Part shown: positions 384 through 59,364 of the stretch, in pieces
Position numbering within the stretch: position 1 is the stretch's first letter
Layout: each line of letters starts with the position of its first letter
Assembly (NCBI GenBank): GCA_035505655.1
Contig: DATJQP010000063.1
Location: forward strand, 34,757-98,756
Direction of reading: 5' to 3'
From: Bacteroidota bacterium
GTDB lineage: Bacteria > Bacteroidota > Ignavibacteria > UBA10030 > UBA8401
DNA: 64,000 nucleotides
Position numbers and translations under genes: made by a program
Notes under the pieces: model-generated
What the model was told of the DNA's origin: nothing
Database searches by the model: none
What the model saw: only the letters and a program-made list of their open reading frames with translations

Positions 384-3074
384 TCAGAATGTGAGCTCAA
401 GTCCAGTTTGAATTAACCGGGGGGCGGCATAGAACCACGGATAGCGAATATATTCGGCCACCGTATTTGGCCGCGCCGGGTCCGGACCTATACCTGAGAC
501 AGAGGTGGTAAAATCGGGCTCGCCGGTGTCCCCGAAAACATTGACGACATTTCGCGCGTCGAGGACGTTGAACACTTTGACATACGCAGTGAAGTCGGTC
601 CCGAACATGTTGAACGTCTTGTTCGCGTAGAGGTCGACATCAAACTGAGGCGGAAGATTTCTCGAGTTCGGTTCGAAGCCGGTGCTGAGTCCCCTGTCCG
701 AGGTGTACTGTGTGACAGCGGGAGTGTACGGAAGTCCGGTGCCGTACTTCATCAGGAGGCTCACGTTCCAACCCTGATCTCCGACGAGGAAGTCGAGATT
801 GAGATTGTGCCGCTGATCCCAGCCGAGGGGCGAGAGAAAGATCACCGGCTGTTGATTGCTGATGGCCGCGTTGAACGCATCATCCGGGTTCGAATTGCTT
901 CCTTCGGCAACCTGATACGTGTAGTTCAACTCGATCGAATAGTGGTTCGAAAACCTCTTCGAGAAGTTGAGCGTGATTCCCCGAACGTTTGAGTAGTCCT
1001 TGTTCGTGTAGACCGAATACGTCACCCCGTTGAGCGTTGGAATCGGCGTACCTGCGGTGATCCAGTCGCGAATGTCCCGGTAGAACCCTGTCGCGTCGAT
1101 GACGAACTCATCCATGAACTGCTGCCGGAATCCTATCTCGTACATGACCGTCCGCTGGGGTTGAAGATCCGGATTGCCGAACGGGCTCGTGGTGGTTCCC
1201 GTACCGGGGACTTTGTATTCGCCTCCATTATAGAGGTACTGGAAGGTCGGAATCTGCAGGAAATGACCGTATGAGAAGTGAACGACCCCATCGACACTGA
1301 TCGGATATGAAACACCGAACCTCGGGCTTAGTTGGGATTTCGGAGTCGCATTTCTGTAGAAGTACGGCTCAAGCTGCGCAACACTCAGCGATTCAAGCCC
1401 GGGTCGGAGCGGATTGTTGATGTTCGGGTCGGAGGGATCGACGAGGACCCTCCCCTTCGAGTTGAAGTAGTCGAATCGGAGACCGACATTGATGATGACG
1501 TCCTTGTATTCGATTTTGTCCTGAAGGTAGCTGGAGAATTCGACCGGCTTCGCATCGTAGAGGTTTCTGTTGATCGACGTCGGGTCGGGGATCGACGGGA
1601 CAAAGGGGACAACCGGCACGCCGTTATCGGTGAGGGGCTGGAGGTAGTAGTCGTCGAACTGGAGATGATGTGCCTTCCCCTCAAACCCGAACTGGACGAG
1701 ATGACTCTCGGACACCTGGCTCGAAAAGTCGAGTTTCGCGGTGTACGATTGCGTCTCCCTGAAGAACCGATGGAGGTCTGTTCCCTTGTCATGGAACGCA
1801 TACGACACCGTCGTGAGGGAGTCCGGAGACTCATACCGCGGATCGTAAGGGTCTGAAAAGAGATACTGGTGGAACGTCTTGTAGAAATAGTTGGTCCTGA
1901 AGGTGTAGAAGGTCCCGGACGAGAGAATGTGATTGATCGTCAGGGTCCCGTCGTAACTCTGCGCATATTTAAAAGGATTTCCGCCGGGTTCCAGCTTGAA
2001 GCCATAGGTATCACTGTTGAAGTCCTGATAGTTGTCCTTCGAATAAAGAAGCTCCGTGTTGATCTTGAGGTCCTTCACAAACTGATAGGCGATGTTTGCC
2101 TGTCCAAGCCACCGTTTGCTCCAATTCATCGCCACTGTATGGCCGTCCCCTTTCGTGCCGTCGATATTGTAATCGTCGTATCCGTAAAGGTATCCGTCGT
2201 CGTACACGTAGCGGCCATTCCCGAAGAACGTCACGGTGTTGTTGGTGCCGGGGATGGGGCCGCTGAGGCTCCCCTGGTAATTGTAGTTTGAAAAGGGATT
2301 GTAGTGGTCGACGTTCGGGAAGTACGAAGTAAAATTGCTCACGTAGTCCGAACCGTAGACATTGAGGGATCCATGATAGTCCTTCCCTCCTTCTTTCGTC
2401 ACGGTGTTCACAATCCCGGACATCGCGTTGCCGTACTCCGCGTTAAAAGTCCCGCTGATGACCTGGAGTTCCTGGATACTGCTATTGTCGAGGTCGATGC
2501 CTCGGCTGTTGTCGTACGGGTCAGTCACGGAGATTCCGTTCACCCAGTACGCGATTTCCGTCGTCCGACCGCCGCGAATGTGGAACCCTCCGCTGGCGTC
2601 TTTCGAGATGCCGGCCTGGAGGCCCAGGACGTCATCGAACTCGGCCGCGGGAAGCGACTTGATCTGATCGGCGGAGACCGTCGATTGCGACGAGGTGACG
2701 TCCTTCTTCACGGCGTCCTGCTTTCCCTCGATGACGACAGCCTGCATTTCCACGGTGGTTTCCATCAGCGAGAAATCGACCTTCGTCGTCTGATCGATCG
2801 AGACGGAAACGTCGTTGACGTCGACAGGCTGGTAGCCGAGATATTGTGCGCGGATGGAATACTTCCCCGGAGGGATGTTGAGGATGACGTAGTTGCCGTC
2901 GATGTCCGCGACCGTGCCGAGGGTCGTCCCGACGATGATGATATTGCAGGCCGGGAGAGACTCTTTGGTCTTCGCATCGACGACTTTCCCCGTCAACTTG
3001 CCGGTGGTCCCCCCGAATGCTTCACTGATCAGAACAAAACTACTGAGGAGCAGAACTGGTAGAAGTTTTCTCAT
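384..3074 (-). CDS. TonB-dependent outer-membrane receptor (carboxypeptidase-regulatory-like N-domain, plug, beta-barrel)
   Basis: Signal peptide. The N-terminal NIIIVGTTLGTVADIDGNYVILNIPPGKYSIRAQYLGY is CarbopepD_reg-like. The plug region reads FHIRGGRTTEIAYWVNGISV. The C-terminus is ...LELTF with a terminal Phe. Confidence 0.85.
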   Translation of the reverse strand: MRKLLPVLLLSSFVLISEAFGGTTGKLTGKVVDAKTKESLPACNIIIVGTTLGTVADIDGNYVILNIPPGKYSIRAQYLGYQPVDVNDVSVSIDQTTKVDFSLMETTVEMQAVVIEGKQDAVKKDVTSSQSTVSADQIKSLPAAEFDDVLGLQAGISKDASGGFHIRGGRTTEIAYWVNGISVTDPYDNSRGIDLDNSSIQELQVISGTFNAEYGNAMSGIVNTVTKEGGKDYHGSLNVYGSDYVSNFTSYFPNVDHYNPFSNYNYQGSLSGPIPGTNNTVTFFGNGRYVYDDGYLYGYDDYNIDGTKGDGHTVAMNWSKRWLGQANIAYQFVKDLKINTELLYSKDNYQDFNSDTYGFKLEPGGNPFKYAQSYDGTLTINHILSSGTFYTFRTNYFYKTFHQYLFSDPYDPRYESPDSLTTVSYAFHDKGTDLHRFFRETQSYTAKLDFSSQVSESHLVQFGFEGKAHHLQFDDYYLQPLTDNGVPVVPFVPSIPDPTSINRNLYDAKPVEFSSYLQDKIEYKDVIINVGLRFDYFNSKGRVLVDPSDPNINNPLRPGLESLSVAQLEPYFYRNATPKSQLSPRFGVSYPISVDGVVHFSYGHFLQIPTFQYLYNGGEYKVPGTGTTTSPFGNPDLQPQRTVMYEIGFRQQFMDEFVIDATGFYRDIRDWITAGTPIPTLNGVTYSVYTNKDYSNVRGITLNFSKRFSNHYSIELNYTYQVAEGSNSNPDDAFNAAISNQQPVIFLSPLGWDQRHNLNLDFLVGDQGWNVSLLMKYGTGLPYTPAVTQYTSDRGLSTGFEPNSRNLPPQFDVDLYANKTFNMFGTDFTAYVKVFNVLDARNVVNVFGDTGEPDFTTSVSGIGPDPARPNTVAEYIRYPWFYAAPRLIQTGLELTF

Positions 3075-3102
3075 AGATCTCTCCGAAGATACGGTGGCAT
3101 TT

Positions 3103-4815
3103 TTAGTTGCCGGCTAATTTTAGAGTGTAATTCTTGACAAGCTCGACGTTCGTTTTGACCGATGTCAGCTTCGCTAGCGCTTCGAGCTTCCGCTGCATAT
3201 ACGGGAAGCCCTTTTCATTCCTGATTGCCTTCACGATGGCGTCGCGCACGAGAGCAAGATCGATCGGTCGTCCTTCTTCCCTCCCGAGAAGACGGAAGAG
3301 GCCGTAGTATTTGTCGAAGTGGACGGGCCCGAGAACGCTCCCCGAGGGGAGGTTCCAGAGAGTGTCCTTCAGCTCCCCAAAATAGGAAAAGGGAGAGAGA
3401 CCCATGATCCCCCTGTTCTTCGCAGTCCACGAACGCAACGAATACTTCGCAGCGAGATCTCCGAAATCCTCTCCGCTGTCGAGCCGGCGGCGAAGGTTCT
3501 CCGCCGTCTGATCGTCGGCGACGATAATCTCCTGCACGTTCATCTGTCGCTCGCCCGTATAGTAGGCAATGTTCTTCTCGTAGTAGCGCGTGATTTCAGA
3601 GTCGGCCACGGGAACGAGGTCGAGAACCTCGTTTCGTTTGTAGTCGAGGTAGATGTAGTTGGCGAGCGTCGTGTACGTCTCCGCGACATAGGACGTGGTG
3701 TCGTACCCCTTCGCATGGGCTATCCCCATGAGCACATCCTGCATGACGAGGCCCGTGACGGCAAGCTTCAACTGGCGCTCGTTCGTCACGAGCTTGCGGT
3801 CGAACTCGGGCGTCCCGAAGAGTTTTGTTTCGATGTCGGCCTGGCTGTAGACCCTTCCGGCGTATTCAACGCACCGCTGGGAACCTGCGCGGCGTTCCGG
3901 GTTCACCTCATGCAATCCGGATTCGGTCTTTTCGAGGTCGTCATAGATGGCCTTCAGCGCCTTGTCGTTGAATTTCATCTTCTCTCTATTGAAGACGTTT
4001 TTGAGGTATGCCGCCTCGTACGGGGCCTTCTTGTCGATCTTCAGCGCTCGTTCAATCTTTCGCTTCATGTTCAGGAAACCATACTCTGTCGCGAAGGGGT
4101 CCTCGACTCTCCCGTCGACACGGATGATGCTGTACCCCTCCGCCGTCCTCACCGGACGCGAGACTTCCCCCACTTTCAGCGAGTAGGCAACACGCTCAAA
4201 CTCGGGGTCCGTTTGCCCCCACGTGATATAACCAAGATATCCGCCGTTGTTCCTCAACGTGGTATCCGTGAAGACCTGCTTTGCGAGCTCCTCAAAGCTG
4301 ACACCGATTTTCACGAGATGATAGAGGTTTTCGGCCTCCTTCTCGGTCGCGGCATAGAGGTGTCGCACTGCGATCTTGACCTTCGATCGTTGGTACGCTT
4401 CCCGGAGTTCGCGATCCGTCACGGTGATCTTCGCGTAGACTTCCTGGTCCTTAAGGAAGGCAAGGACCGTTCTCGTCCAGGCGGAGGCAAGCTCCTTCTT
4501 GTATTCGGGATCACTGTACACTTTGGCGTTATCGTCGTACCGTCTCAGGAGGATTTCGTTCACCATATTGTTGAGAACGGCGTAGCGCGCCCTTACGTTG
4601 TCCTGGACGCCGGTGAAGACGAGGTAATCTTCGTACCTCGACTTGAAATCGTTGTACGAAAGAGCGCTGTCGCCGACCCACGCCACGGTCGTCGCGGAGT
4701 CGGGAATCGTCGGAGCGGACTCTGCGAGGGTCGGGATGAGCATCCATACGCAGAGCGAGGCGAGTAGGGAGATCATCATTCGCCTGCGGTTTGCCCGATG
4801 AAACCTGTCAGTCAT
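3103..4815 (-). CDS. SurA/PpiD-like periplasmic chaperone with two parvulin-type peptidyl-prolyl isomerase domains
   Basis: Two PPIase-like blocks: VRHLYAATEKEAENLY...GGYLGYITWGQ and MNVQEIIVADDQTAENLRRRLDSGEDFGDLAAKYS...GIMGLSPF. N-terminal hydrophobic segment. The exact start is uncertain, possibly at MMISLL. Confidence 0.75.
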   Translation of the reverse strand: MTDRFHRANRRRMMISLLASLCVWMLIPTLAESAPTIPDSATTVAWVGDSALSYNDFKSRYEDYLVFTGVQDNVRARYAVLNNMVNEILLRRYDDNAKVYSDPEYKKELASAWTRTVLAFLKDQEVYAKITVTDRELREAYQRSKVKIAVRHLYAATEKEAENLYHLVKIGVSFEELAKQVFTDTTLRNNGGYLGYITWGQTDPEFERVAYSLKVGEVSRPVRTAEGYSIIRVDGRVEDPFATEYGFLNMKRKIERALKIDKKAPYEAAYLKNVFNREKMKFNDKALKAIYDDLEKTESGLHEVNPERRAGSQRCVEYAGRVYSQADIETKLFGTPEFDRKLVTNERQLKLAVTGLVMQDVLMGIAHAKGYDTTSYVAETYTTLANYIYLDYKRNEVLDLVPVADSEITRYYEKNIAYYTGERQMNVQEIIVADDQTAENLRRRLDSGEDFGDLAAKYSLRSWTAKNRGIMGLSPFSYFGELKDTLWNLPSGSVLGPVHFDKYYGLFRLLGREEGRPIDLALVRDAIVKAIRNEKGFPYMQRKLEALAKLTSVKTNVELVKNYTLKLAGN

Positions 4816-8494: not shown

Positions 8495-9916
8495 CTATTT
8501 TGAGTAGAAGTCGATCATCCTGTTGATTGCGCCGGCGCACACCGGGTCGAAATCCACAAGACTGAGTGAAAACATACGGCAGTCGAGCGACGGGCGGTAG
8601 AACCCCTTCGAACTGTACCCCGCACCTTCGAAAGCCCCGACAACCCCCTTCAAGGAATCTACCGTCAGGGCGCGATGCTCTGCGTCGAGGATCATTTGCC
8701 GCTTTTCGGCATACCCTTTCTCCTCCCGGCGGAGGTTGCCCCGGGCCGCCTCCATACTGTCGTAGAGCTGCTTGTTCCACGGAGTTGGGAGTGGAGTTTT
8801 TGCGTCAACGAGGCCAGCCCATTTCAGCCCTGTCCGCGATACGTCGACGGCAATATTCGGTTCCCATGGCTCGACGCCCTTTGGGTAAAAGTCATTGTAG
8901 GCGACGGACGAGGAGTAGTATTCGTCTCCAAGTCCCGCAAAACAATGGCCGAACTCATGGACGAAGACATAGTCTGCCTGCCATGCCGTCTCCGGTGTCT
9001 CGCCGGTGGCGTAGCACGTGGCGTAGAGCTGGAAAATTCCTCCTCCGCCGTAGCGGCCGACGTTGACGAGGATGAACATGAAGTCGTAGGGTGCAAGGGC
9101 GGCGTAGTCTCTAATTTCCGCGTTGTCGTCCGACAGAACATAGCGGGCCGAGCCGAAACTATTGTATGACGTCCCGAGCGCATTCCCGGTCCAGATGCCG
9201 CGGTCCGGCTGGTTGATCCCCGACCGGCGTGACACCACTTCTATCGCCCGAACGTTGAATTCCTTTTTTCTCGACTTGAACGGTTCCGTCCCGAGAAGCA
9301 CGTTTGTGAAATGCTTCGCGTCCGCCCGGAACTTCGGCATGTCGGCGGCGGAATAGCCGTCGCCGAGAATGACGATGTCTACCTTCGAATGGCTATCACC
9401 ATGCACTTCGATGTCGTCCACCTTTGCTTCCCGACGGCTCGCTTCGCGGCGGACCTCTTCTCCGTTCGGATCAATGACCGCGGAGAAGAGCTCATCAAAC
9501 GCCATCTCTTTGTTCCTGCCGAAGATCCTGAGCTGGACCTTGCCCTTCGGGAAAGGGAACCGGACCGTCTCATGAAATGTCCTCCAGACCCCTGCGAGAG
9601 CCTCGTCGGTCGTCTGCCACTCGTGAAAGAGCGAAGAGAATCCGCGCGAGTAGAGTACCTTGTCCGAGCGGTAGTCTACGACCTCAAAACAATACTCTCC
9701 GAGGTTCAGCGTGTCGAGGAGTTGAGTCGTGCTTCCCGGCCACTCTCCTTCTTCATACATCTTGTCGGAGGTGAATCGTTCTTCGCCCTTCGTCCCGGAA
9801 TGATAGTAGTCAAACCGGAACGTGGAGTCTTTGAAGAAACGGTCGAACTGGCTTTTCGCGTTTGTCGCCGCAAAGAGGACGAGGAGCGACATCAAAAGCA
9901 GACGCAATCGAATCAT
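8495..9916 (-). CDS. Peptidase M64 family (IgA-peptidase-like) zinc metallopeptidase, secreted
   Basis: Signal peptide MIRLRLLLMSLLVLFAATNAKSQ. The HEFGHCFAGLGDEY zinc motif and overall layout fit M64_N plus the M64 catalytic domain. Confidence 0.8.
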   Translation of the reverse strand: MIRLRLLLMSLLVLFAATNAKSQFDRFFKDSTFRFDYYHSGTKGEERFTSDKMYEEGEWPGSTTQLLDTLNLGEYCFEVVDYRSDKVLYSRGFSSLFHEWQTTDEALAGVWRTFHETVRFPFPKGKVQLRIFGRNKEMAFDELFSAVIDPNGEEVRREASRREAKVDDIEVHGDSHSKVDIVILGDGYSAADMPKFRADAKHFTNVLLGTEPFKSRKKEFNVRAIEVVSRRSGINQPDRGIWTGNALGTSYNSFGSARYVLSDDNAEIRDYAALAPYDFMFILVNVGRYGGGGIFQLYATCYATGETPETAWQADYVFVHEFGHCFAGLGDEYYSSSVAYNDFYPKGVEPWEPNIAVDVSRTGLKWAGLVDAKTPLPTPWNKQLYDSMEAARGNLRREEKGYAEKRQMILDAEHRALTVDSLKGVVGAFEGAGYSSKGFYRPSLDCRMFSLSLVDFDPVCAGAINRMIDFYSK

Positions 9917-23530: not shown

Positions 23531-23638
23531 GTCGCAGCGTTGGGGAGTCACACCTTCCGGTAGGCGCACCGGCTCGAAGTCAATGGGGGAATTGCGCAGT
23601 TGACCGCGGGGGGACGGCTCAACTTGAAAGGGGCGATC

Positions 23639-25153
23639 ATGAACTCACGGCTTGTCAGTTCCTTCTCCGGCATTCTTCTCTTCTGTGTATCACTCGCCAT
23701 CGGACAGTCGGACGGCCCGTTCTATAAGGTTGACACGCTGACAGCAGGTCCATTCAATGACCTCCATCCGCGTTCGCAGAACGGCTGGTCCGGAGCTGGT
23801 ACCGGGCTCAACGATTGGATCGTGTTCGAACGCCAATCAGATTCGTTGGCGATGATCGCGGCGATGAGACGACCCCGAAGCTCTCATGCGTGGGATACGC
23901 TTGTCGAGATTGTTTCTTCGTCTCCTGCATCTGAAACGCAGGCTCTCCCTCAGATCGTCTTTTCGAACCACCCTCCGTGTCTCATCGGGGTGTGGCAGAA
24001 GCGGACCGACGGCAAATGGGGCATCTGGTATTCATGGCAAAAAGGGGATACGACCGTCTGGAGCGATCCCGCAAGGGTGACTCGTGATAGCGTGGATTGT
24101 ACGAGCCCGCATGGAGCGAATTGGGAAGACACTGCCTCTCTCATCACCTGGAGGCGGGGAAAGGCGATCCTTGGGACTTTTCTTTCTCAAAGTTCCCTGG
24201 GTTCGCCAGAAAGCGCCGCTCCGCCGGAGACGCTCGCAGTCTCCAATGACGATTCTCTTGAGTATGACCTGGGATTTTCCATTGGGACGGCGGGCATCGT
24301 TTGGACCGTGAAGGACAGCTCTGGCGGCCGCCTCCTCCTCACTCGCCAAATCAACTCCTATCCTTTCTTCTCGCTCTCTGTTCCTGAGACCCTCGCCGCC
24401 CGAGGAAGCGTCTTGAATCCAAGGGTTGCCTCACCATACTACTCGGCATACGGTCCCTACTTCTATGAACGTCTGGTGGGCGGCCGGCACGAGGTGCACT
24501 TCGCGAGCACAGCCTCCGACGAGCTGATCTCCTCCGATTCCTCCGTCGATTTCCGCAATCCTGTCGTGTTCGAATCTCCGGTCGTCACCGCGGGGACAGC
24601 TTCAGCGGAGGATGCTGGGATCTTCTGGTATGGCTCTTATGTGGTCGAAGCGTACAGGCACGGTGACTCCACCCTCTTCTTCCAAGAAGATGATCAGCCT
24701 ATTGATACTGTCCGAAGCGCTGGCCACAACCGTGATGCGTGTTTCGGATCGATGATTTTCTACGATCCGCTTTATCATCAGACAGTCATCCCGATCGTCT
24801 GGGAAAGTAATCGGAGCGGGAGGTGTCATCTTTACACGAGGATGGCCGCGGTCCCACTGGGACTCGTGAAGCAGGAAAACTCGGTGGCAAAGGATTTCGG
24901 CCTCGACCAGAATTTTCCAAACCCTTTCAACCCGTCCACCAGCTTTCGCTTTCATATAGGTCATCCCGCAGAAGTCTCGATCGCTATTTTCGATATCCTT
25001 GGGAGGATGGTGAAGACACTCATTGCTCAGAGACTTGGAGCCGGCGACTACACGGTCACATGGAATGCGGGAACGCGATCAAGCGGGATCTACTTCTGCA
25101 GGATGAGAGCGGGTGATTACACCGAAATAAGAAAGCTATTGCTCGTCAAGTAA
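23639..25153 (+). CDS. Secreted protein with a T9SS (Por) C-terminal sorting domain; N-terminal function unknown
   Basis: Signal peptide MNSRLVSSFSGILLFCVSLAIGQ. The C-terminal FPNPFNPSTSFRFHIGHPAEVSIAIFDILGRMVKTL...GIYFCRMRAGDYTEIRKLLLVK matches Por_Secre_tail. The start was trimmed from 23600. Confidence 0.7.
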   Translation: MNSRLVSSFSGILLFCVSLAIGQSDGPFYKVDTLTAGPFNDLHPRSQNGWSGAGTGLNDWIVFERQSDSLAMIAAMRRPRSSHAWDTLVEIVSSSPASETQALPQIVFSNHPPCLIGVWQKRTDGKWGIWYSWQKGDTTVWSDPARVTRDSVDCTSPHGANWEDTASLITWRRGKAILGTFLSQSSLGSPESAAPPETLAVSNDDSLEYDLGFSIGTAGIVWTVKDSSGGRLLLTRQINSYPFFSLSVPETLAARGSVLNPRVASPYYSAYGPYFYERLVGGRHEVHFASTASDELISSDSSVDFRNPVVFESPVVTAGTASAEDAGIFWYGSYVVEAYRHGDSTLFFQEDDQPIDTVRSAGHNRDACFGSMIFYDPLYHQTVIPIVWESNRSGRCHLYTRMAAVPLGLVKQENSVAKDFGLDQNFPNPFNPSTSFRFHIGHPAEVSIAIFDILGRMVKTLIAQRLGAGDYTVTWNAGTRSSGIYFCRMRAGDYTEIRKLLLVK

Positions 25154-48125: not shown

Positions 48126-50993
48126 TCAGCGGACAGTGTATGTGAAGGTGAGCATATAATAGCGGCCGAGGACATTGTTCTGCGTGTCCTCGATGTATGT
48201 ACCGGTCACCGTCCGCGTCACGCTTTTGTTTTGATTGAGCAGATCGGCGACCGACATCGTCAGTTCTCCCTGTTCCTTCGCGAACAATTTCTTGCCGAAA
48301 CTCATATTCCACAGGACGGTGTTTTTGTCATACCCTCCGCTCAGCCCGCTGATCAAAGCGTTGTCGACTTCATTCCGGTAAACGATCCCCTGCCAGAACA
48401 TGAGACTCGATTTCACCCCGGCCGTGTGAGAATAATAGTGGCTGTTGAGGTCCGGCTCGAAGGAGTTTTGTGAGATGTTATAGTTCCCCTGGTAGGAAAG
48501 GGTAAAATCGACCTTTTCGCTCACGTTGCTGCTGAGCACCGCTCCGGCACTCGGGCCGTACGTATTCGCGACGTTGAGGTTTCTGTTGATGAGGCCGGGA
48601 CTTCGTGCATAGGTGAGCCCAGACGTGAGGTTGAGGTTGCTCTTGATGGGGGTGACGACGAGACTGTAGGTGAGGAATGAATTGACCGTCCATTGGTCGT
48701 TGAGATTCACCGGATACGTCAATTGCGTTCCGCGGTTCATGACGATCCCCCCCGAGAGTATAGTGTCGCGAAGCGCCGTTGTCGTCGCGTTCGCAATATC
48801 ATTGTTGGTGTAACCGGCCGAGAGAAGAAGAAAGACGCTCCGGGCATTGTCGACGTTTGTCACCGAATAACGGGCGATGATAGACTGGGTGTATGATTGG
48901 CTCAGCGCCGGGTTCCCCGTGCTCAGCTGGAGCGGATTCGAATTGTCGACGACGTCCTGGAGCTGGGTGATGGACGGAGCCTGGGTAGAGGTTCTGTAGA
49001 AGATCCGGAGGTTTTTGTGGTCGGCAAGGTTGACCATCAGCATCGCATTCGGAAGCACATTGTAGAAGATCCTGTCGATCGTGCTGCTGAGGGGAAATGT
49101 CTGACGTCCGTGCAGTGATGCGACCTGATAGGAAACGCCGGCCATTGCATTGAGCCCTGAAATCCTGAGCCGATAGGCGATCCCTCCGCTTTGTGTCCAG
49201 TATTGGTTTTCATAACTGTTCGAGTATGCGGTGTCCGGCGTTGTGTACTCGCCGGTGAGTGGATCGAAATTGTACTTCTTATTGTCGGAGTTATTCCGCG
49301 AAAACGACGGGGTATAGCTCAGCATGAGCAGGCTAACGCCTCCGACCGGCTCGGTGTAGGCAAGCCGCGAGCTCAGCGAATAGCCCTCCGTCCGGACCGG
49401 CGTCTGCTGGTTGAGGGTATCGGAAGCGGTGCCGGTCGCCTGGTAGTATTCACTCGTCGCCTCCTGCATCGTGGTGCCGCGTTTGTTGTTCATTGTCGCG
49501 CCGACGTCGAGCGAGATCGTCCGTCCCGGCTCGTCGAATTTGTGGCGCAGGATGATGTGGTTTGACAGGTTGTCTCCGCTCGTATGGGCGTAGTTGTCGT
49601 TCGCGGTCTGATTGATGAGCTGCTGAGTTGCGAGTGAGTTAACGCCGCTGAGGAGACTTGAAGAGCTGTTGTTCTGAAAATAAAGCCGCGGGAGCTCGAT
49701 GATCGAGTTCAGTGTGTCCGGCGTATACACCATTCTCATGTCGACGCGGTGGTTCCCGTTCTTGCTCTCCGCATTGCTGTTTTCGTCGTAAAGGGTGACG
49801 GAATCCGGAGTCGGGAAGTACTGCATCCTCTGTTTCTGATCGTTCGATGTGTTCGTATTGTTGTAGAAATAGCTCTGCGTCACGGAGAGATCGCTCCCCC
49901 AGTTGTCGGTGTAATTGAGGCCGACGGAATTCGTCGTCGCGATTCCGCTCTGCTGACCGACGAGGAAGTTGCTCACATTCCCTCCGCCGAATCCTCCCGG
50001 TCCGCCGCCGACAAATCCGCCGCCTCCCATCCCACCCCCACCTCCGCCACCCCTGAATCCTCCTCCACCGCCTCCGCCAAAACCGCCCCGGCCGCCGCCG
50101 TTTCCGACAACCCCGAGCAGATCCTGGGTCGAGAAGTTCTGCTGGTTCAGGTTGTTCGAAAGAGCAATCGCGGAAAGCCTCGTTCCTTCGTGAAAGAAAT
50201 TGCCGCTTCCTCCGGTCAGGTAGCGGTCATCATCGCCGTATCCGCCGTAGACTTTGCCGAATTGTTGGTTTCGTTTGTTGGCTCTCGTAATAATATTGAT
50301 CGTCTTCACCGACTGACCGTCGTCGAAACCGGTAAACTCGGCCTGATCGCTCATTTTGTCAAAGACCTGGATCTTTGCAATCGCGTCGGCAGGAAGGTTC
50401 CTCAGCGCAAGGGTAGGATCGTTCCCGAAGAACGGTTTCCCGTCGACGAGAACCTGCTGAACGGTCTCCCCCTGAGCAGTGACCGTCCCGTTGGTGACGA
50501 TGACTCCGGGGAGTTTGCCGATGAGGTCTTCGGCGAGCGCATCCGGGTTCGTCTTGAAAGCTCCTGCGTTGAACTCCGTCGTATCGGCCTTTTGCACCGC
50601 CGGGGGCGGAGATCCCTCGATATCGACCTCTCCGAGAGGAATTGGGATCTGCTCAAGCTTGAGGTCCGGAAGGGTCACATTCCGGTCCATTACGCGGATT
50701 GTCTTCGTGAACGTCGTGCATCCGACAAAGGTCGCCTCGAGGAGGTAGGAATGCGTGCGGATTCCGGTGAACTGATAGTGACCGGAATAGTCGGTAGAGG
50801 TGATGTACGTTTCTTCGGGATTGTCGCTGTTCGTGATCTTGACGTGTGCACCATAAAGAGGAGTGCTTGTCTTGCTCTCAATGACCCTTCCTTCTACCTG
50901 GGAAGTCTGAGCGACTGCAAGGGAGGATATCAAGCAGAGGAGAACAATGCAAAAAGGTACCAACCTTGTCATCGGGCGTATCCAGACATTCAT
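48126..50993 (-). CDS. Outer-membrane beta-barrel / TonB-dependent-receptor-like protein (OMP_b-brl_3-like) with a Gly-rich insert
   Basis: Signal peptide after trimming the start to MNVWIRPMTRLVPFCIVLLCLISSLAVAQ. The CarbopepD_reg-like N-domain reads EGRVIESKTSTPLYGAHVKI, followed by a plug-like segment and a long Y/T/N/S-rich beta-strand region. The low-complexity insert reads GGGRGGFGGGGGGGFRGGGGGGGMGGGGFVGGGPGGFGGG. Confidence 0.7.
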   Translation of the reverse strand: MNVWIRPMTRLVPFCIVLLCLISSLAVAQTSQVEGRVIESKTSTPLYGAHVKITNSDNPEETYITSTDYSGHYQFTGIRTHSYLLEATFVGCTTFTKTIRVMDRNVTLPDLKLEQIPIPLGEVDIEGSPPPAVQKADTTEFNAGAFKTNPDALAEDLIGKLPGVIVTNGTVTAQGETVQQVLVDGKPFFGNDPTLALRNLPADAIAKIQVFDKMSDQAEFTGFDDGQSVKTINIITRANKRNQQFGKVYGGYGDDDRYLTGGSGNFFHEGTRLSAIALSNNLNQQNFSTQDLLGVVGNGGGRGGFGGGGGGGFRGGGGGGGMGGGGFVGGGPGGFGGGNVSNFLVGQQSGIATTNSVGLNYTDNWGSDLSVTQSYFYNNTNTSNDQKQRMQYFPTPDSVTLYDENSNAESKNGNHRVDMRMVYTPDTLNSIIELPRLYFQNNSSSSLLSGVNSLATQQLINQTANDNYAHTSGDNLSNHIILRHKFDEPGRTISLDVGATMNNKRGTTMQEATSEYYQATGTASDTLNQQTPVRTEGYSLSSRLAYTEPVGGVSLLMLSYTPSFSRNNSDNKKYNFDPLTGEYTTPDTAYSNSYENQYWTQSGGIAYRLRISGLNAMAGVSYQVASLHGRQTFPLSSTIDRIFYNVLPNAMLMVNLADHKNLRIFYRTSTQAPSITQLQDVVDNSNPLQLSTGNPALSQSYTQSIIARYSVTNVDNARSVFLLLSAGYTNNDIANATTTALRDTILSGGIVMNRGTQLTYPVNLNDQWTVNSFLTYSLVVTPIKSNLNLTSGLTYARSPGLINRNLNVANTYGPSAGAVLSSNVSEKVDFTLSYQGNYNISQNSFEPDLNSHYYSHTAGVKSSLMFWQGIVYRNEVDNALISGLSGGYDKNTVLWNMSFGKKLFAKEQGELTMSVADLLNQNKSVTRTVTGTYIEDTQNNVLGRYYMLTFTYTVR
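49969..50110 (-). repeat. Low-complexity Gly-rich coding tract inside the OMP gene
   Basis: GGN codon run. The opposite strand reads as the Pro-rich spurious ORF 49969..50193. Confidence 0.8.
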
Positions 50994-51302
50994 CGTCGCT
51001 AGTTCGACGCTCGCTACGGAGCATTGGTTTAACGAAATCCCGGTTGTGCGAAGCGCCTTCGAGCGCAAAGATCCGGGGGATCTCACCATATGAACTACTC
51101 ATCAAAGGCTCCGCCATTTTTCTGCCGAAGGAATGGCTTTGCCAGACTCTCTCCACGCATCCACCAACGCTTCCCTCGCTCACGACGGCTGGGTCTCTTT
51201 TTTCCATCAGGCAAATCAGGACACTACCAAGATCCGTCACTCCTTGATTCAATGCGAAAAAGTTCCTATCCTCAGAAAGTCTGCACCCTCTGAAAGCATC
51301 GA

Positions 51303-54521: not shown

Positions 54522-55420
54522 TGCTGTTCGCCGACCGTTCCGTTAGCTGTTGACGAGGTGAGTTCGAGGAGCACAATCGCTCCAATGACCATCGTCCCCC
54601 CGGCAACCTGAAGGGGCGCCATGCCCCCTCCGAGGAAGAAATACGCCGTCGCAATGGCAACGACGGGCTCGAGGGTGCTCGTGATGATCGCCCGCGTCGG
54701 TGTGAGAAGATGGAGTCCGGCGAAATAGAATGAGTACGGCACAAGAATCGACGTCGTCGACACGAGGGCGAAGATCCCCCAATCCGAAAGCGAATATCCC
54801 GCGCTGAGAATCACCTGGGGAGGTTGAACGAAGAGCCAGAAAATCGTGGCCGCTCCGAGTGAAAAGATCATAGAGGGCCAGATCGCGTACCTCCGGGTGA
54901 GCGGTTTTCCGGCGATATTGAAGATCGAGTACGACACCGCGGCGACGAGGGCGTAGAGGATTCCTGCTCCGCGAGCAACAAGCAGACCGTCAAGTCCTCC
55001 GACAGCGAGAAAAATCCCCAAAGTCGAAACAACGAGGGAAAGAAGTTTCCACCTCGTCATCTTCTCTCCCTGAACGATGACGGCGTAGATCGCCACCATC
55101 ATCGGTGCGGAATACTGGACAAGGATGGCGGTCGCAACATTCGATTCCCGAATCGCATAGTAGTAAAAGTAGTTAGATCCCGCGATACCGCCGATCCCGA
55201 CGAGAGCAATGAGAGGAATGTCTTTGATCCTGAACCTGAGCGACGAAGGGTTCTTCACAAGCACGGCAAGGAGGAGGACGAGGAACGCGATCGAGACGCG
55301 GGTCTGGATAATAATGAGGGGCTGGAACTGGATGTTAAAGAGATGCTTGACGATCGTCGCGGAGGCTCCCCACAGCGTAGCCGCCGCGGCAATGAGAAAA
55401 TACCCTTTTGCGGATTTCAT
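54518..55420 (-). CDS. EamA/DMT-family transporter
   Basis: 10 TM helices forming two EamA repeats. 4-nt overlaps with both neighbours. Confidence 0.85.
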   Translation of the reverse strand: MKSAKGYFLIAAAATLWGASATIVKHLFNIQFQPLIIIQTRVSIAFLVLLLAVLVKNPSSLRFRIKDIPLIALVGIGGIAGSNYFYYYAIRESNVATAILVQYSAPMMVAIYAVIVQGEKMTRWKLLSLVVSTLGIFLAVGGLDGLLVARGAGILYALVAAVSYSIFNIAGKPLTRRYAIWPSMIFSLGAATIFWLFVQPPQVILSAGYSLSDWGIFALVSTTSILVPYSFYFAGLHLLTPTRAIITSTLEPVVAIATAYFFLGGGMAPLQVAGGTMVIGAIVLLELTSSTANGTVGEQQ

Positions 55421-55959
55421 TGCGGAGGCTGCTCTCCCGCCTCATCCGCCTTGAGCCGGTAGTACTCGGCGAGGTCCTCATCGCCGAGGAGATGATAGAG
55501 GTACGACAGCCGGCCGCAGAGGGTCTTCTTGTCCGTCACGGCGTCGAGACCGTGCTTGACGAATTCGATCAGCCCTTCAAGCGGAGGAATATTGAGGTCC
55601 GGATCGTAGCAGTCGCACGCATGGAGGTACGGCTCGGCCGCCGACGGATTTACCCGCGCGGCCTTTTCGTAATAGAGGAGACTGTGCTCGAAGTTGTCCT
55701 TCGAAGCGAAGACCGCTTCGAAGACGCTGGCCATCCAGAGATAGATGTCGTACGAGGCGTGGGGAAACTCCCGCGCGAGCTTTTCGCCGAAGAGTTCGAT
55801 CTCCTCGACGCGAAGGGAGTCGTTCCAGAAGAGAATACGGTACAGCTCTATGTCGTCGATCTTCTGGGCGATCGCCGACTCAAACGCATCGAAGATTTCG
55901 TTGAAGTTTGTGGCGGAGGCGAAACGCTGGCGGATTTCATCGCGAGAGAGTTCCGGCAT
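55417..55959 (-). CDS. Hypothetical cytoplasmic acidic helical protein
   Basis: 180 aa with no signal peptide and no recognisable motif. It lies immediately downstream of the large secreted PLD-family protein gene. Confidence 0.35.
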   Translation of the reverse strand: MPELSRDEIRQRFASATNFNEIFDAFESAIAQKIDDIELYRILFWNDSLRVEEIELFGEKLAREFPHASYDIYLWMASVFEAVFASKDNFEHSLLYYEKAARVNPSAAEPYLHACDCYDPDLNIPPLEGLIEFVKHGLDAVTDKKTLCGRLSYLYHLLGDEDLAEYYRLKADEAGEQPPQ

Positions 55960-56052: not shown

Positions 56053-59000
56053 CTACTTCAGCAACATCAACTTGGTCGTAGCGACGAAGCTTCCGGACTC
56101 CATCCTGGCAAAATAGACACCGCTGGAATACCTCCCGGCGTTCCACTCCACGGTGTACGTTCCCGGATTGAGCTTCCCGTTCACGAGCGTCGCCACCTCC
56201 CTTCCGAGAATGTCGTAGATCCTCAACGTCACCGGGCGCGCAGCGGCAATCGAGAACCGCAGTTTCGTCGAGGGGTTGAACGGATTAGGATAGTTCTGCC
56301 CGAGCGCGAAGGTCGTCGGCAACACGGTCGGGACCTCCGTCACCGAGATGGCGATGTTGTCGGTTCCCCCAGCGTCGAGGTAGCGCTGTTTGAACTCCTG
56401 AAGGTAAAGGTTCGCTACTCTCTTGCTGTGAAGGATGAGCGTGTTTTCATCGTTCGCCGTTTCGGCGGAACTTGACCAGTTGTGCGACCCGGTGATGACG
56501 ATGTTCGACTCCGAGGGGATGTCGGCGTCAACGATCGCATACTTGTGATGCAGCAGACCGTTGAGACTCGCCGCTTTGAGAAGAACGTCGACCCCGGCAT
56601 TTTTGAGGGTAGCGAACTCGTTGCCGGTGTCGGTGTTGTTGTCCAGCACGACGCGCACCTTCTCATTCTCGCCTTTCTCCGCGATGAGAGCTTGTGCAAG
56701 GTCGTCCCTCGTAAACGTCAGCATGCAAATGTTGACGGAAGATTTCGCCGAGCTTACCGCCGTGAGGATCTTCGATGTCGTCTTGTCCGAGGGGCTGAAA
56801 TACGATTCGACAGGAATCCCGCCGATGACAAACCTGTGCGGCGTGATGTCGGACTTTCTGTAGCCGAAACGCGAAGCAGTCTGGTTGGGACTGTCTCCGC
56901 TGCTCCCCCACATTTGGTTGAACTCGACAGTGTAGGCCTCGGCCAGCGACCGATCCTGGATTTCGACCATATTCTGAGCGTCATTGTTGGTGCCCGGGTC
57001 GGTGGCGTTCCAGGAGCCGGTGACGACCCAATCGATGCGGGTCGCCGAAGTATCCCGATGATCGAAGACGTAGAACTTATTATGCATGAGCCCCGCCCCC
57101 GCATCGACAGCGTCGTAGGCGTCGTCGATGACGACGATCCCGGCACTCCTGAGCGTCCCCCAGGGAGCGGTGGTGATATTGTCGTGTTCGCCGATGACCC
57201 GGATCTTGACGCCGCGGTTGTGCGCGGCGAGAAGCGCCGCCGCAATATTGGCCCCGACAGTCCCGCTGAAACTGTAGGTGCACATGTCAATCGAGCGTTG
57301 CGCCTGGCCGATGCGGTAGAGAAGCACTTTGGAGAGGTCGGTTGTTTTGGCGCTTTCCGCAAGGGCAACCGAAAAATTTACCGTCTTGTTGAAGTAGATC
57401 CTCAGCGAATCGCTCGACGTTGAGCCGCTGATGAAAATCGCGTCGCCCGTTGCATCCGACCCGGAGTTGTCACTGGCCACCACCTGGTAGTGATAGATCG
57501 TCGAAGGAACGAGGTTCTTCAGGAGAACGGAGTGGGCCGTGTCGGAACCAACATTTACAGAATCTGTGTACGAAGTCGTCGTGCCGTACCGCACAGTCTC
57601 AGTTGAAGCGGTAACCGTCGGCGCAACGATGGTCACCGAAGTCGGAGTAATGCCGGTCTCGTACGGGATTCCCTTATAGACCGGTCCGGGGTGTACGATG
57701 ATGTCGGCCGGCGTCCGGGGATCGACCTCGTAGTCCGCCGTGTACGGCGCTGCCGCCGTTTGCTTGAACTGCTTGAGGATTCCTATGAGGTCAAACGTTC
57801 CGGTCGGCGGAGTCCAGGTGGAGGGAAGGTAGCACGACGTCGTCCCGGTCGCATCGGTGATCGGTCCGGCGGTCCCCGGAGTTCCAGCATAGGTGACGTT
57901 GTTGATTCTTACCAATCTTCCCTCGTCGGGTTCCGTGTAGACGTCTGTGTTGAATGTCTCGTTGACGTCGTGCGCCGTAAGGAGAAACGGAGCGGGAAGA
58001 GGGTTGCCGCTTGAGTGGAGGAAATATTTCGTGGAGTCGAGTGAAACTTCCAGGAGACCGTGAAATTGAGTAATGGTTCCTGTAACGGTGATGCTGTCTC
58101 CGACTTGGTAGTTGTACGACCTGAAGGGCCGATAGATGCACACTCCCGCCGTGGCGTCCTGGACAAAAATGTTGGTGTACGAAGCGCTGAAATCTCCGGT
58201 GACAACACCGGACACTGACACCGTAGCACCAACCTGGTACGGCGCCGCCTGCACTCCGAGGGAATCGTTGACATGGAGGTCTATGATCGGAATTACTTTG
58301 ATCACAGCAACATTGAGGTTCGAGCTGATTCTCACCGGCACGCCGCCGTTCAGGGCGCTCAGGACGTTGAACTGGCAAGTGAGGGCAGAGTCCGGAGCCG
58401 TCACCGAGGCAATGACGATGATCCCCGTATCCGAATCCGTCACCGAAGCATGTCCGACCTGAATCGTGTCCCCCACGACCGTCACGTGTCCCGCCGCAGC
58501 TCCTCCCCCAACGGTGACGCTCGCCGCAGACTGGGACCACGTCAGCCCGTCGGGGACAACGATAACGAGGCTGTCGAGGGTGTTTACCCCGTCGCCGGCG
58601 ACTTCAATGGTAAATGAGCCGGTTGTGCCCGCCTGAATGAAGGTCGGAGCGATCGCCGCGGATCCGGTCCCGTTCCCGCCGACCGTGAGCGAGGGTTCGA
58701 CAGGGCTAGCGCTGTTTTGCGGCTGGGGAGACGTGCGGACGACAAAATCACTGGAGTTGTTGTCCGAGTCGTATCCGTTCCCGGCGAACTCATCGCTTCC
58801 CCCAGCCGCCAGTGTCAGCGCCGTTGAGGAGGAATTCGCCTTTCGCTCCACGGAGGTCGAGTTGCTCGGAGCGGGAGTCGGTCCGCTCCCTTCGTAGCCA
58901 TTCGCCGTGCCGTACCCTACCCTGTCGATCACTGAAGATCCGGTCGGGTTGGCCCCGCTCAGAGCGGTTGTGCTGTTCACGAGCGCGATCTTTCCCGCCG

Positions 59001-59364
59001 TCGAACTCATGGCAAGCGTTCCGGAGACGTCGGGCGTCGGAAGTCCTGCCGTGCCGCCGCTGCCGACGGCCTCTCCGACGAGAAAGAAACCATGGGGCGC
59101 TATCGTACCGGTGAGATTGGTCACCAGCCACGAGCCTGTGCCCGTTGCCGAAGCGTACTGGACCGACCAGCCGCTCAGGCTCACCGTCGACGAAGTCGGG
59201 TTGTAGAGTTCGACAAAATCGTTTTTGTAGTACGCGCCGGAATTTCCCCCTCCGCCGTAGACTTCACTGATGACGACATGGTTCGCGGTTTGAGCGTGCA
59301 CAAGAGTGAGCAGAGAAACCGAGAGGATGATGCCGGCGGCAATCGACTCTAGAATTTTTCGCAT
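56053..59364 (-). CDS. T9SS-secreted multidomain protein: lamin-tail domain, OB-fold, FN3-like domain, PLD-superfamily domain with two HKD motifs, Por C-terminal domain (candidate extracellular nuclease)
   Basis: Signal peptide. The LTD reads HVVISEVYGGGGNSGAYYKNDFVELYNPT...GWSVQYASATG. The OB-fold-like block reads YQVGATVSVSGVVT...IFVQDATAGVCIY...ITVTGTITQFHGLLEV. The FN3-like block reads TSYTDSVNVGSDTAHSVLLKNLVPSTIYHYQV. The two HKD motifs are GLMHNKFYVFD...GSWNAT and GLLHHKYAIVD...GSHNWS. The C-terminus NYPNPFNPSTKLRFSI...GVYFARMESG...KLMLLK is Por_Secre_tail. Confidence 0.75.
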   Translation of the reverse strand: MRKILESIAAGIILSVSLLTLVHAQTANHVVISEVYGGGGNSGAYYKNDFVELYNPTSSTVSLSGWSVQYASATGTGSWLVTNLTGTIAPHGFFLVGEAVGSGGTAGLPTPDVSGTLAMSSTAGKIALVNSTTALSGANPTGSSVIDRVGYGTANGYEGSGPTPAPSNSTSVERKANSSSTALTLAAGGSDEFAGNGYDSDNNSSDFVVRTSPQPQNSASPVEPSLTVGGNGTGSAAIAPTFIQAGTTGSFTIEVAGDGVNTLDSLVIVVPDGLTWSQSAASVTVGGGAAAGHVTVVGDTIQVGHASVTDSDTGIIVIASVTAPDSALTCQFNVLSALNGGVPVRISSNLNVAVIKVIPIIDLHVNDSLGVQAAPYQVGATVSVSGVVTGDFSASYTNIFVQDATAGVCIYRPFRSYNYQVGDSITVTGTITQFHGLLEVSLDSTKYFLHSSGNPLPAPFLLTAHDVNETFNTDVYTEPDEGRLVRINNVTYAGTPGTAGPITDATGTTSCYLPSTWTPPTGTFDLIGILKQFKQTAAAPYTADYEVDPRTPADIIVHPGPVYKGIPYETGITPTSVTIVAPTVTASTETVRYGTTTSYTDSVNVGSDTAHSVLLKNLVPSTIYHYQVVASDNSGSDATGDAIFISGSTSSDSLRIYFNKTVNFSVALAESAKTTDLSKVLLYRIGQAQRSIDMCTYSFSGTVGANIAAALLAAHNRGVKIRVIGEHDNITTAPWGTLRSAGIVVIDDAYDAVDAGAGLMHNKFYVFDHRDTSATRIDWVVTGSWNATDPGTNNDAQNMVEIQDRSLAEAYTVEFNQMWGSSGDSPNQTASRFGYRKSDITPHRFVIGGIPVESYFSPSDKTTSKILTAVSSAKSSVNICMLTFTRDDLAQALIAEKGENEKVRVVLDNNTDTGNEFATLKNAGVDVLLKAASLNGLLHHKYAIVDADIPSESNIVITGSHNWSSSAETANDENTLILHSKRVANLYLQEFKQRYLDAGGTDNIAISVTEVPTVLPTTFALGQNYPNPFNPSTKLRFSIAAARPVTLRIYDILGREVATLVNGKLNPGTYTVEWNAGRYSSGVYFARMESGSFVATTKLMLLK

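Follow-up and report, generated by a model that had tools for sequence, protein, structure and literature searches.

What kind of enzyme is a protein that has the front end of one family of secreted nucleases and the catalytic domain of another superfamily altogether? The question is raised by a gene at positions 56053-59364, minus strand, of a 64,000-nucleotide stretch of contig DATJQP010000063.1 from a Bacteroidota bacterium (we refer to this whole stretch as the window). The original prediction, made from the letters of the DNA, described the 1103-amino-acid (aa) product as a type IX secretion system (T9SS) cargo protein combining a lamin-tail domain (LTD), an OB-fold, a fibronectin type III (FN3)-like domain and a duplicated phospholipase D (PLD) domain carrying HKD motifs, and proposed that it is an extracellular nuclease of unusual architecture. 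We find that every domain on that list is real, although the list missed one, an immunoglobulin (Ig)-like sandwich at aa 226-357. Based on its sequence, we consider that the protein is probably a metal-independent phosphodiesterase of the PLD superfamily, secreted or held at the cell surface, that acts on extracellular DNA or RNA.

The open reading frame (ORF), read from the window, runs from an ATG to a stop codon over exactly the interval first given for it, to which we can add the strand. It is 100% identical to an NCBI protein entered as 'phospholipase D-like domain-containing protein [Bacteroidota bacterium]' (P0001 in our files), and a protein database search returns more than 100 full-length homologues at 40-73% identity with the same architecture. 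Because an identical protein is on record and homologues extend over the full length down to about 40% identity, the sequence comparisons indicate a real gene. A scan for promoters and terminators gave counts no higher than chance. All conservation figures below refer to an alignment of 65 homologues (A1; 42-73% identity), in which the PLD lobes are the best conserved part and the Ig-like domain and signal peptide the least. A full-length AlphaFold2 model (mean predicted local distance difference test score, pLDDT, 85.9) contains the expected folds, while its predicted template-modelling score of 0.54 leaves the mutual placement of the domains uncertain. From the N-terminus, the order is signal peptide, LTD, Ig-like sandwich, tandem OB module (DUF5689), FN3, two PLD lobes and a T9SS type A C-terminal sorting domain (CTD):

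56053..59364, minus strand: whole gene, comprising the 1103-aa ORF and its stop codon at 56053-56055; from the ORF and the 100% identical NCBI protein
59293..59364, minus strand: Sec signal peptide, aa 1-24 (MRK, a hydrophobic core, then VHA with Q as the next residue; no lipobox Cys); read from the sequence
58699..59292, minus strand: LTD, aa 25-222, whose conserved C-terminal segment reads ERK...GNGYDSDNN..DF; from PF00932, invariant residues and pLDDT of about 90
58294..58689, minus strand: Ig-like beta-sandwich, aa 226-357; all-beta in the AlphaFold2 model, weak Big_3_3 match
57691..58293, minus strand: tandem OB module, aa 358-558, corresponding to Pfam DUF5689 (DdbD-type); from the DUF5689 score, AlphaFold2, Foldseek and a profile search
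57415..57690, minus strand: FN3-like domain, aa 559-650; from Pfam, the beta-sandwich in the AlphaFold2 model, a profile search and the architecture census
56860..57414, minus strand: PLD lobe 1, aa 651-835, with HKD motif 1 (H761, K763, D768, G783-S-W-N786; nucleotides 57007-57084); from PLDc_2, invariance and the Zucchini match
56350..56859, minus strand: PLD lobe 2, aa 836-1005, with HKD motif 2 (H940, K941, D946, G959-S-H-N962; nucleotides 56479-56547); from PLDc_2 over aa 867-993 and a profile search
56056..56298, minus strand: T9SS type A CTD, aa 1023-1103; from TIGR04183 and PF18962

The catalytic module carries most of the argument. Both HKD strings read in the original prediction are present and intact, LMHNKFYVFDHRDTSATRIDWVVTGSWN at aa 761-786 and LLHHKYAIVDADIPSESNIVITGSHNWS at aa 940-962, and Pfam PLDc_2 matches the region in two stretches (E 3e-47). 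Across the homologues H761, K763, D768 and G783-S-W-N786 are invariant, as are G959-S-H-N-W963, N971, E973 and N974, with H940, K941 and D946 at least 90% conserved; the inter-lobe segment RFGxRKxDxTPH (aa 832-843), which precedes motif 2, is almost invariant. Two complete motifs thus assign the protein, by the usual sequence signature, to the PLD (HKD) superfamily. The two lobes are homologous to one another (28% identity, E 2e-15), which argues that the catalytic unit is an internally duplicated, covalently fused pseudo-dimer. In the AlphaFold2 model the predicted fold is that of a bilobal PLD, with the lobes in a pseudo-twofold relation, and the whole module finds its best structural matches, over about 400 columns, in the bilobal PLDs 7e0m, PLD3, PLD4 and F13 (E 4e-18 to 1e-14; TM-score 0.58-0.70 normalised to the target). 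Phosphatidylserine synthase stands lower in the same list of structural matches, which also includes PPK1, an enzyme with PLD-like domains. Taken singly, the lobes share 24-31% identity with Nuc, Zucchini and NucT in the structural alignments.

To which branch of the superfamily does the module belong? A search of Protein Data Bank (PDB) chains with the single protein matched Zucchini/MitoPLD, Nuc and NucT, and nothing else. A family profile against the same database found mouse Zucchini at E 2.8e-24 (on lobe 2), Nuc at 4e-19, fly Zucchini at 2.4e-17 (on lobe 1) and NucT at 2e-9, followed by PLD3 (2e-6), the Serratia PLD 7e0m (9e-6), a poxvirus nicking-joining enzyme (2.5e-5) and F13; the chains of Streptomyces PLD, human PLD1/2, cardiolipin synthase and phosphatidylserine synthase did not appear in that profile search at E <0.1. 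NCBIfam adds partial NucT matches on both lobes. Each HKD motif is followed by GS, as in PLD-family nucleases, in contrast to the GG of true phospholipases (PMC8004604). Sequence matches that are nuclease-only or nuclease-led, together with the GS motifs, argue for placing the module by descent in the nuclease branch, a placement that makes a nucleic-acid substrate probable but does not prove it. A Pfam scan of the protein gave no match to an EEP catalytic domain, in keeping with the idea that a PLD module has here taken the place that EEP holds in ExeM-type enzymes.

The second line of evidence is the module in front of it. The predicted OB-fold turns out to be a tandem of two. In the full-length protein scan DUF5689 remains below threshold (E 9e-6, aa 372-495), but aa 358-558 scanned alone reach 29.8 bits and so pass the gathering score of 28.6; 23 of 26 homologues match DUF5689, the best at E 1e-12. 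Modelled alone with those 26 homologues, the module forms two consecutive five-stranded barrels at a pLDDT of 95.7. The highest-ranked Foldseek matches of this model are all nucleic-acid-binding OB folds, namely HIN-200 domains (p202, p204, IFI16, AIM2-type), RPA, STN1 and TEN1, with probabilities near 1 and modest TM-scores. At the level of sequence, a profile of the OB region matches the N-terminus of PDB entries 9sf8/9sf9 (Streptococcus pyogenes nuclease A, SpnA) at E 2e-6, and positions 1-109 of the ExeM_NucH model NF033681 align with aa 384-488 (E 5e-4; 19 bits against a cutoff of 300). The part of SpnA that is matched is OB3, which is reported to be necessary for DNA binding and cleavage (PMC13601614); DNA binding by SpnA needs both OB2 and OB3. 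DdbD, too, is a DUF5689 protein: it belongs to the DNA-utilization locus of Bacteroides thetaiotaomicron, where it is predicted to bind DNA as partner to the TonB-dependent transporter DdbC, and the authors of that work likewise compared their DdbD model with the HIN domain of p202 (PDB 4JBM). DUF5689 occurs again in RA0C_RS04920, a protein essential to natural transformation in Riemerella anatipestifer. Searching a large protein database with an OB-module profile brought up mainly fragments, from which fusion partners could not be usefully counted.

Delivery outside the cell is suggested by the two ends of the protein. The signal peptide region is a poorly conserved helix in the model, with low pLDDT at aa 18-25. 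The CTD scores 40.8 bits on TIGR04183 (NCBIfam; cutoff 23) and E 1e-7 on the Por_Secre_tail model PF18962 (Pfam), so that the protein bears the signature expected of a T9SS type A cargo, a signal peptide plus a type A CTD, which supports the export route originally proposed. Within the 64-kb window we found none of the core T9SS genes; genes of the PorV/PorQ family adjoin the PLD gene in related loci, and the homologue family is confined to lineages of the Fibrobacteres-Chlorobi-Bacteroidetes (FCB) group. A second T9SS type A cargo is encoded at 23600-25153 (plus strand; 517 aa), whose CTD closely resembles the one on the PLD protein and whose other 430 aa or so contain no recognisable domain. 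Among the remaining modules, the LTD is secure (PF00932, E 2e-15, aa 24-152), the Ig-like domain has the lowest conservation of any domain (0.46), and the FN3 region has two weak Pfam matches over aa 587-636 (Pur_ac_phosph_N, E 2e-5; fn3, E 0.019), fibronectin matches with profile A3 and a beta-sandwich in the model. Pfam therefore returns the LTD, PLDc_2 and Por_Secre_tail under the names that had been anticipated, and the OB module as DUF5689.

If these parts work together as their relatives do, the following scheme seems plausible. From established T9SS biology, the protein would be exported through Sec, recognised by the T9SS through its CTD, and then released or anchored at the surface. 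Family knowledge suggests that the two linked Nuc-like lobes pack as a pseudo-dimer around one active site, where, as in Nuc, Zucchini and NucT, one of H761 and H940 would attack the phosphodiester to give a phospho-histidine intermediate and the other would protonate the leaving group; like those enzymes, it would cleave without metal ions. The polymer would be kept close to the active site by the tandem OB module, perhaps together with the LTD; the FN3 and Ig domains would be spacers, and the products could supply scavenging of phosphorus, nitrogen and carbon. In Ignavibacteria, uptake of the products may proceed through a TonB-dependent receptor encoded in the same operon. NucT offers a precedent: it is an exported, cation-independent enzyme implicated in purine salvage, with a mild role in competence.

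Setting the protein beside the systems it resembles shows what is shared and what is not. With Nuc (pKM101), Helicobacter pylori NucT and Zucchini/PLD6 it shares, in each lobe, HxK(x)4D...GSxN followed by N-x-E-N, and by analogy the expected metal-independent chemistry; those enzymes, however, are homodimers of single-HKD chains of roughly 150-200 aa, whereas here two diverged lobes are fused within a 1103-aa T9SS cargo. One chain with two HKD lobes is also the format of the lysosomal 5' exonucleases PLD3 and PLD4, of the poxvirus F13/K4-like proteins and of the Serratia plymuthica PLD 7e0m, which are 15-18% identical to our protein, belong to other cellular contexts and have no LTD, OB, FN3 or CTD; PLD3 and PLD4 show that a single-chain bilobal PLD can be a nuclease. 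ExeM/NucH-type enzymes and SpnA have in common with it a signal peptide, an LTD and/or a sequence-homologous OB front end, and an extracellular or surface location, but differ in their Mg/Ca-dependent EEP catalysis, where our protein has PLD, and in a C-terminal hydrophobic anchor or LPXTG in place of the T9SS CTD. ExeM itself, a proven nuclease, is LTD plus OB plus EEP, with an essential OB region and a dispensable LTD that merely enhances activity (PMC6085458), which bears out the comparison on which the original prediction was built. The LTD-then-OB order of family NF033681 is accordingly present here, without a match to its full-length model or an EEP domain. DdbD (of Bacteroides ddbABCDEF) and RA0C_RS04920 have the same DUF5689 tandem OB, the same p202/HIN-200 resemblance and the same association with TonB-dependent outer-membrane receptors (here in loci of an Ignavibacteria type); both stand alone as predicted substrate binders that pair with a transporter, whereas the module is here fused to a catalytic domain. 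Apart from one weak match to a cardiolipin synthase model, given below, classical PLD, cardiolipin synthase and phosphatidylserine synthase share with the protein neither sequence affinity nor, in its motifs, their GG.

A number of observations weigh against the nuclease reading. The OB module is acidic (isoelectric point 4.5, net charge -11; family mean -10.4 ± 2.5) and has, family-wide, a single conserved Lys/Arg (R550) along with several conserved aromatics; this composition is odd for a non-specific DNA binder and bears also on the role proposed for DdbD, whose own DNA binding is a prediction. The PLD module is net negative too. Other exported proteins of the window are likewise acidic, which softens the objection from OB charge but does not remove it. 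The NucT equivalog models reach 27-62 bits against cutoffs of 211-351, the entry 7e0m, which heads the bilobal structural matches, is labelled a phospholipase, many family members lack both the OB and LTD modules, and the neighbours in the window include no nucleotidase, phosphatase, nucleoside transporter or nuclease-related partner. The label of 7e0m, 'phospholipase D', is one of the points in favour of a true phospholipase D or lipid phosphodiesterase, which would be secreted either against competitor or prey membranes or to release phosphate or head groups from phospholipids in the environment, with the LTD targeting it to membranes. Such an enzyme would also fit the PLD-like and cardiolipin-synthase-like names in Pfam, NCBI and JGI, a weak match to a cardiolipin synthase model of NCBIfam (E 1e-3; 18 bits, cutoff 290) and the proposal of Mans et al., as it is cited in PMC6085458, that LTDs direct proteins to membranes. 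We nevertheless think it unlikely: nucleases dominate the sequence matches, the classical phospholipid-acting PLDs and the cardiolipin and phosphatidylserine synthases are absent in the PDB searches, GS rather than GG stands behind both HKD motifs, and the OB/DUF5689 module is tied to DNA systems.

The substrate could instead be some other polymer with negative charge (teichoic acids, phosphoglycans, polyphosphate or capsular phosphodiester links, for example), with the OB module binding oligosaccharide. OB folds are able to bind sugars, and this reading would fit the strongly acidic OB module with almost no conserved basic residues, PPK1 among the structural matches, and Ig and FN3 spacers like those of glycan-active T9SS cargo. 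Against this, the protein has no sequence affinity to such enzymes, the sole sequence-level relatives of the OB module with known function are nucleases or DNA-uptake systems, and neither a carbohydrate-binding module nor a glycan gene context was found in the protein scan, the window or the related loci; we regard the idea as improbable. A third possibility keeps the nuclease chemistry and changes the purpose alone: the protein would capture and process DNA at the surface for natural transformation, binding, nicking or trimming incoming DNA at the outer membrane. The requirement for DUF5689 proteins in Riemerella transformation, the mild competence role of NucT and an Ignavibacteria operon with an outer-membrane receptor all lend themselves to this view, which we judge very unlikely, the family being very broad with many members that have no OB module, and the competence genes ComEA, ComEC and DprA not having turned up around the gene, either in the window or in the loci examined. 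A role in a defence system was rejected, the matches to DrmC and ZacB being weak and partial and the protein being secreted.

Of these explanations, then, we prefer a secreted or surface nuclease, and turn to how widely the gene is distributed and how its parts are combined. When each species was represented by a single genome, scanning located at least 593 loci, carried by Bacteroidota, including Ignavibacteria and Kryptoniota, and by related phyla. The best 80 of these at least 593 loci lie in genomes of uncultured Bacteroidota, Ignavibacteria, Kryptoniota, Chlorobi-type lineages, Eisenbacteria and Fermentibacteria; one is in a metagenome-assembled genome of Melioribacter roseus (L024), whose homologue is 41% identical. 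Searched by itself, the PLD module matches 710 cluster representatives with E 1e-30 or better. We took a census of architectures among the 150 best of these representatives with hidden Markov models built from the 65-homologue alignment, noting that some short entries may be gene fragments. The most frequent arrangement, OB2-FN3-PLD-CTD, accounts for 37 of the 150, followed by (LTD-)Ig-OB2-FN3-PLD-CTD in 21, FN3-PLD-CTD in 19, PLD only in another 19, PLD-CTD in 17 and OB2-FN3-PLD in 12; the census also contains proteins with two or three OB2 modules and the permuted orders PLD-OB2 and LTD-PLD-OB2. By this count FN3-PLD-CTD is the commonest shared core, with FN3 directly preceding the PLD module in most members that bear accessory domains, and the OB and LTD modules are variable additions. 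The OB module is present in about 70 of the 150, in several domain orders; being frequent and repeatedly rearranged, it argues for a functional coupling with PLD. The full architecture seen in the window is one common variant and not a rare one.

The surroundings of the gene depend on the lineage. In the window the PLD gene stands alone between divergent SecD/SecF genes and an operon encoding a 180-aa protein, EamA, SpoU and an alpha/beta hydrolase; RpiB is another of its neighbours, which are housekeeping genes. Clustering of the ORFs flanking related loci gave two synteny types. The type found in the window (about 21 loci) resembles inheritance by descent. In the other, the Ignavibacteria type (14 loci), genes for a TonB-dependent receptor, a PorV/PorQ-family protein and an NHL protein precede the PLD gene with 4-bp overlaps; the receptor has the CarboxypepD_reg-Plug-barrel build, and the PorV/PorQ-family protein scores 238 bits against a cutoff of 90. 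In one such locus (L071, 533-8655) the receptor (533-3343) has 936 aa, the PorV/PorQ-family protein 325 aa and the NHL propeller 357 aa, with the PLD protein last, and the same four genes recur in L010, L011, L014, L061, L069, L072, L079 and others. Since a hydrolase together with a TonB-dependent receptor is the logic of polymer-utilization and Ddb loci, this set may, by analogy, be an operon of the polymer-utilization kind.

The 180-aa gene merits separate mention. It lies at 55417-55959 (minus strand), 93 bp downstream of the PLD gene, and its product is very acidic (isoelectric point 4.5, net charge -18), with no signal peptide and no family match. Of 80 related loci, 21 have it on the downstream side of the PLD gene, always at the head of a unit with EamA and SpoU joined by 4-bp overlaps; inserted genes spanning 1-4 kb often lie between it and the PLD gene, and it is absent from the Ignavibacteria-type loci. 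This constant company, the insertions and the absence point to synteny by descent, and leave the attractive idea of a nuclease inhibitor or immunity protein unsupported.

How new is all this? Our literature searches on LTD plus PLD, on T9SS plus PLD nucleases and on nucleases of Ignavibacteria found no description of the family, and in that sense the suggestion of an undescribed class holds; on the other hand, the architecture is common in databases and has already been annotated automatically, some JGI records being named 'predicted extracellular nuclease' and labels in Pfam, NCBI and JGI otherwise being PLD-like or cardiolipin-synthase-like. Each part was already known, as were PLD-family nucleases, including the single-chain, two-HKD PLD3 and PLD4, and hundreds of copies are in the databases. 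What we did not find described is the variant itself, a T9SS cargo whose LTD/OB front end is joined to PLD in place of EEP. In sediments and soils, much phosphorus, nitrogen and carbon is stored in extracellular DNA, and Bacteroidota are implicated among its major degraders (PMC8289736). Extracellular nucleases are usually surveyed through EEP, Endonuclease I, SNase or NUC-type domains, and a widespread PLD-type enzyme filed under lipid-enzyme names would escape such surveys. Should the protein prove active, it would be an EDTA-resistant secreted nuclease of unusual modular build, and would provide biochemical evidence on nucleic-acid binding by the DUF5689/DdbD module. We regard it as a good candidate for expression and assay, of ecological relevance, that introduces no new biological principle and should not surprise a specialist. 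A bolder extension, which we offer tentatively and hold to be rather doubtful, is that the family represents a major unrecognised metal-independent, T9SS-delivered DNase of Bacteroidota, Ignavibacteria, Kryptoniota and Eisenbacteria in soils, sediments and groundwater, in which a DdbD-type module is fused to PLD chemistry, and which in Ignavibacteria works with a dedicated outer-membrane set (a TonB-dependent receptor, a PorV/PorQ paralogue and an NHL propeller), the four genes forming an operon for DNA utilization that differs from the Ddb loci of Bacteroides.

Three further genes of the window deserve a brief record. At 384-3074 (minus strand), at the window edge and 53 kb from the PLD gene, lies an 896-aa receptor with CarboxypepD_reg, Plug and TonB-barrel domains, 28% identical over its full length to the receptor of the Ignavibacteria PLD operon (E 4e-93). 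About 5 kb from the PLD gene, 48126-51089 (minus strand) encodes a 987-aa outer-membrane protein with CarboxypepD_reg and OMP_b-brl_3 and no Plug match, a domain description that resembles that of the Riemerella transformation protein RA0C_RS04915. We considered and set aside a Ddb-like pair near the PLD gene: 48126-51089 has no DUF5689 neighbour, and the OB model matches no other ORF of the window. Finally, an M64 (IgA-peptidase-like) metalloprotease gene at 8495-9916 (minus strand), beside genes for a tetratricopeptide-repeat (TPR) protein and a major facilitator superfamily (MFS) transporter, appears to be an ordinary chromosomal gene.

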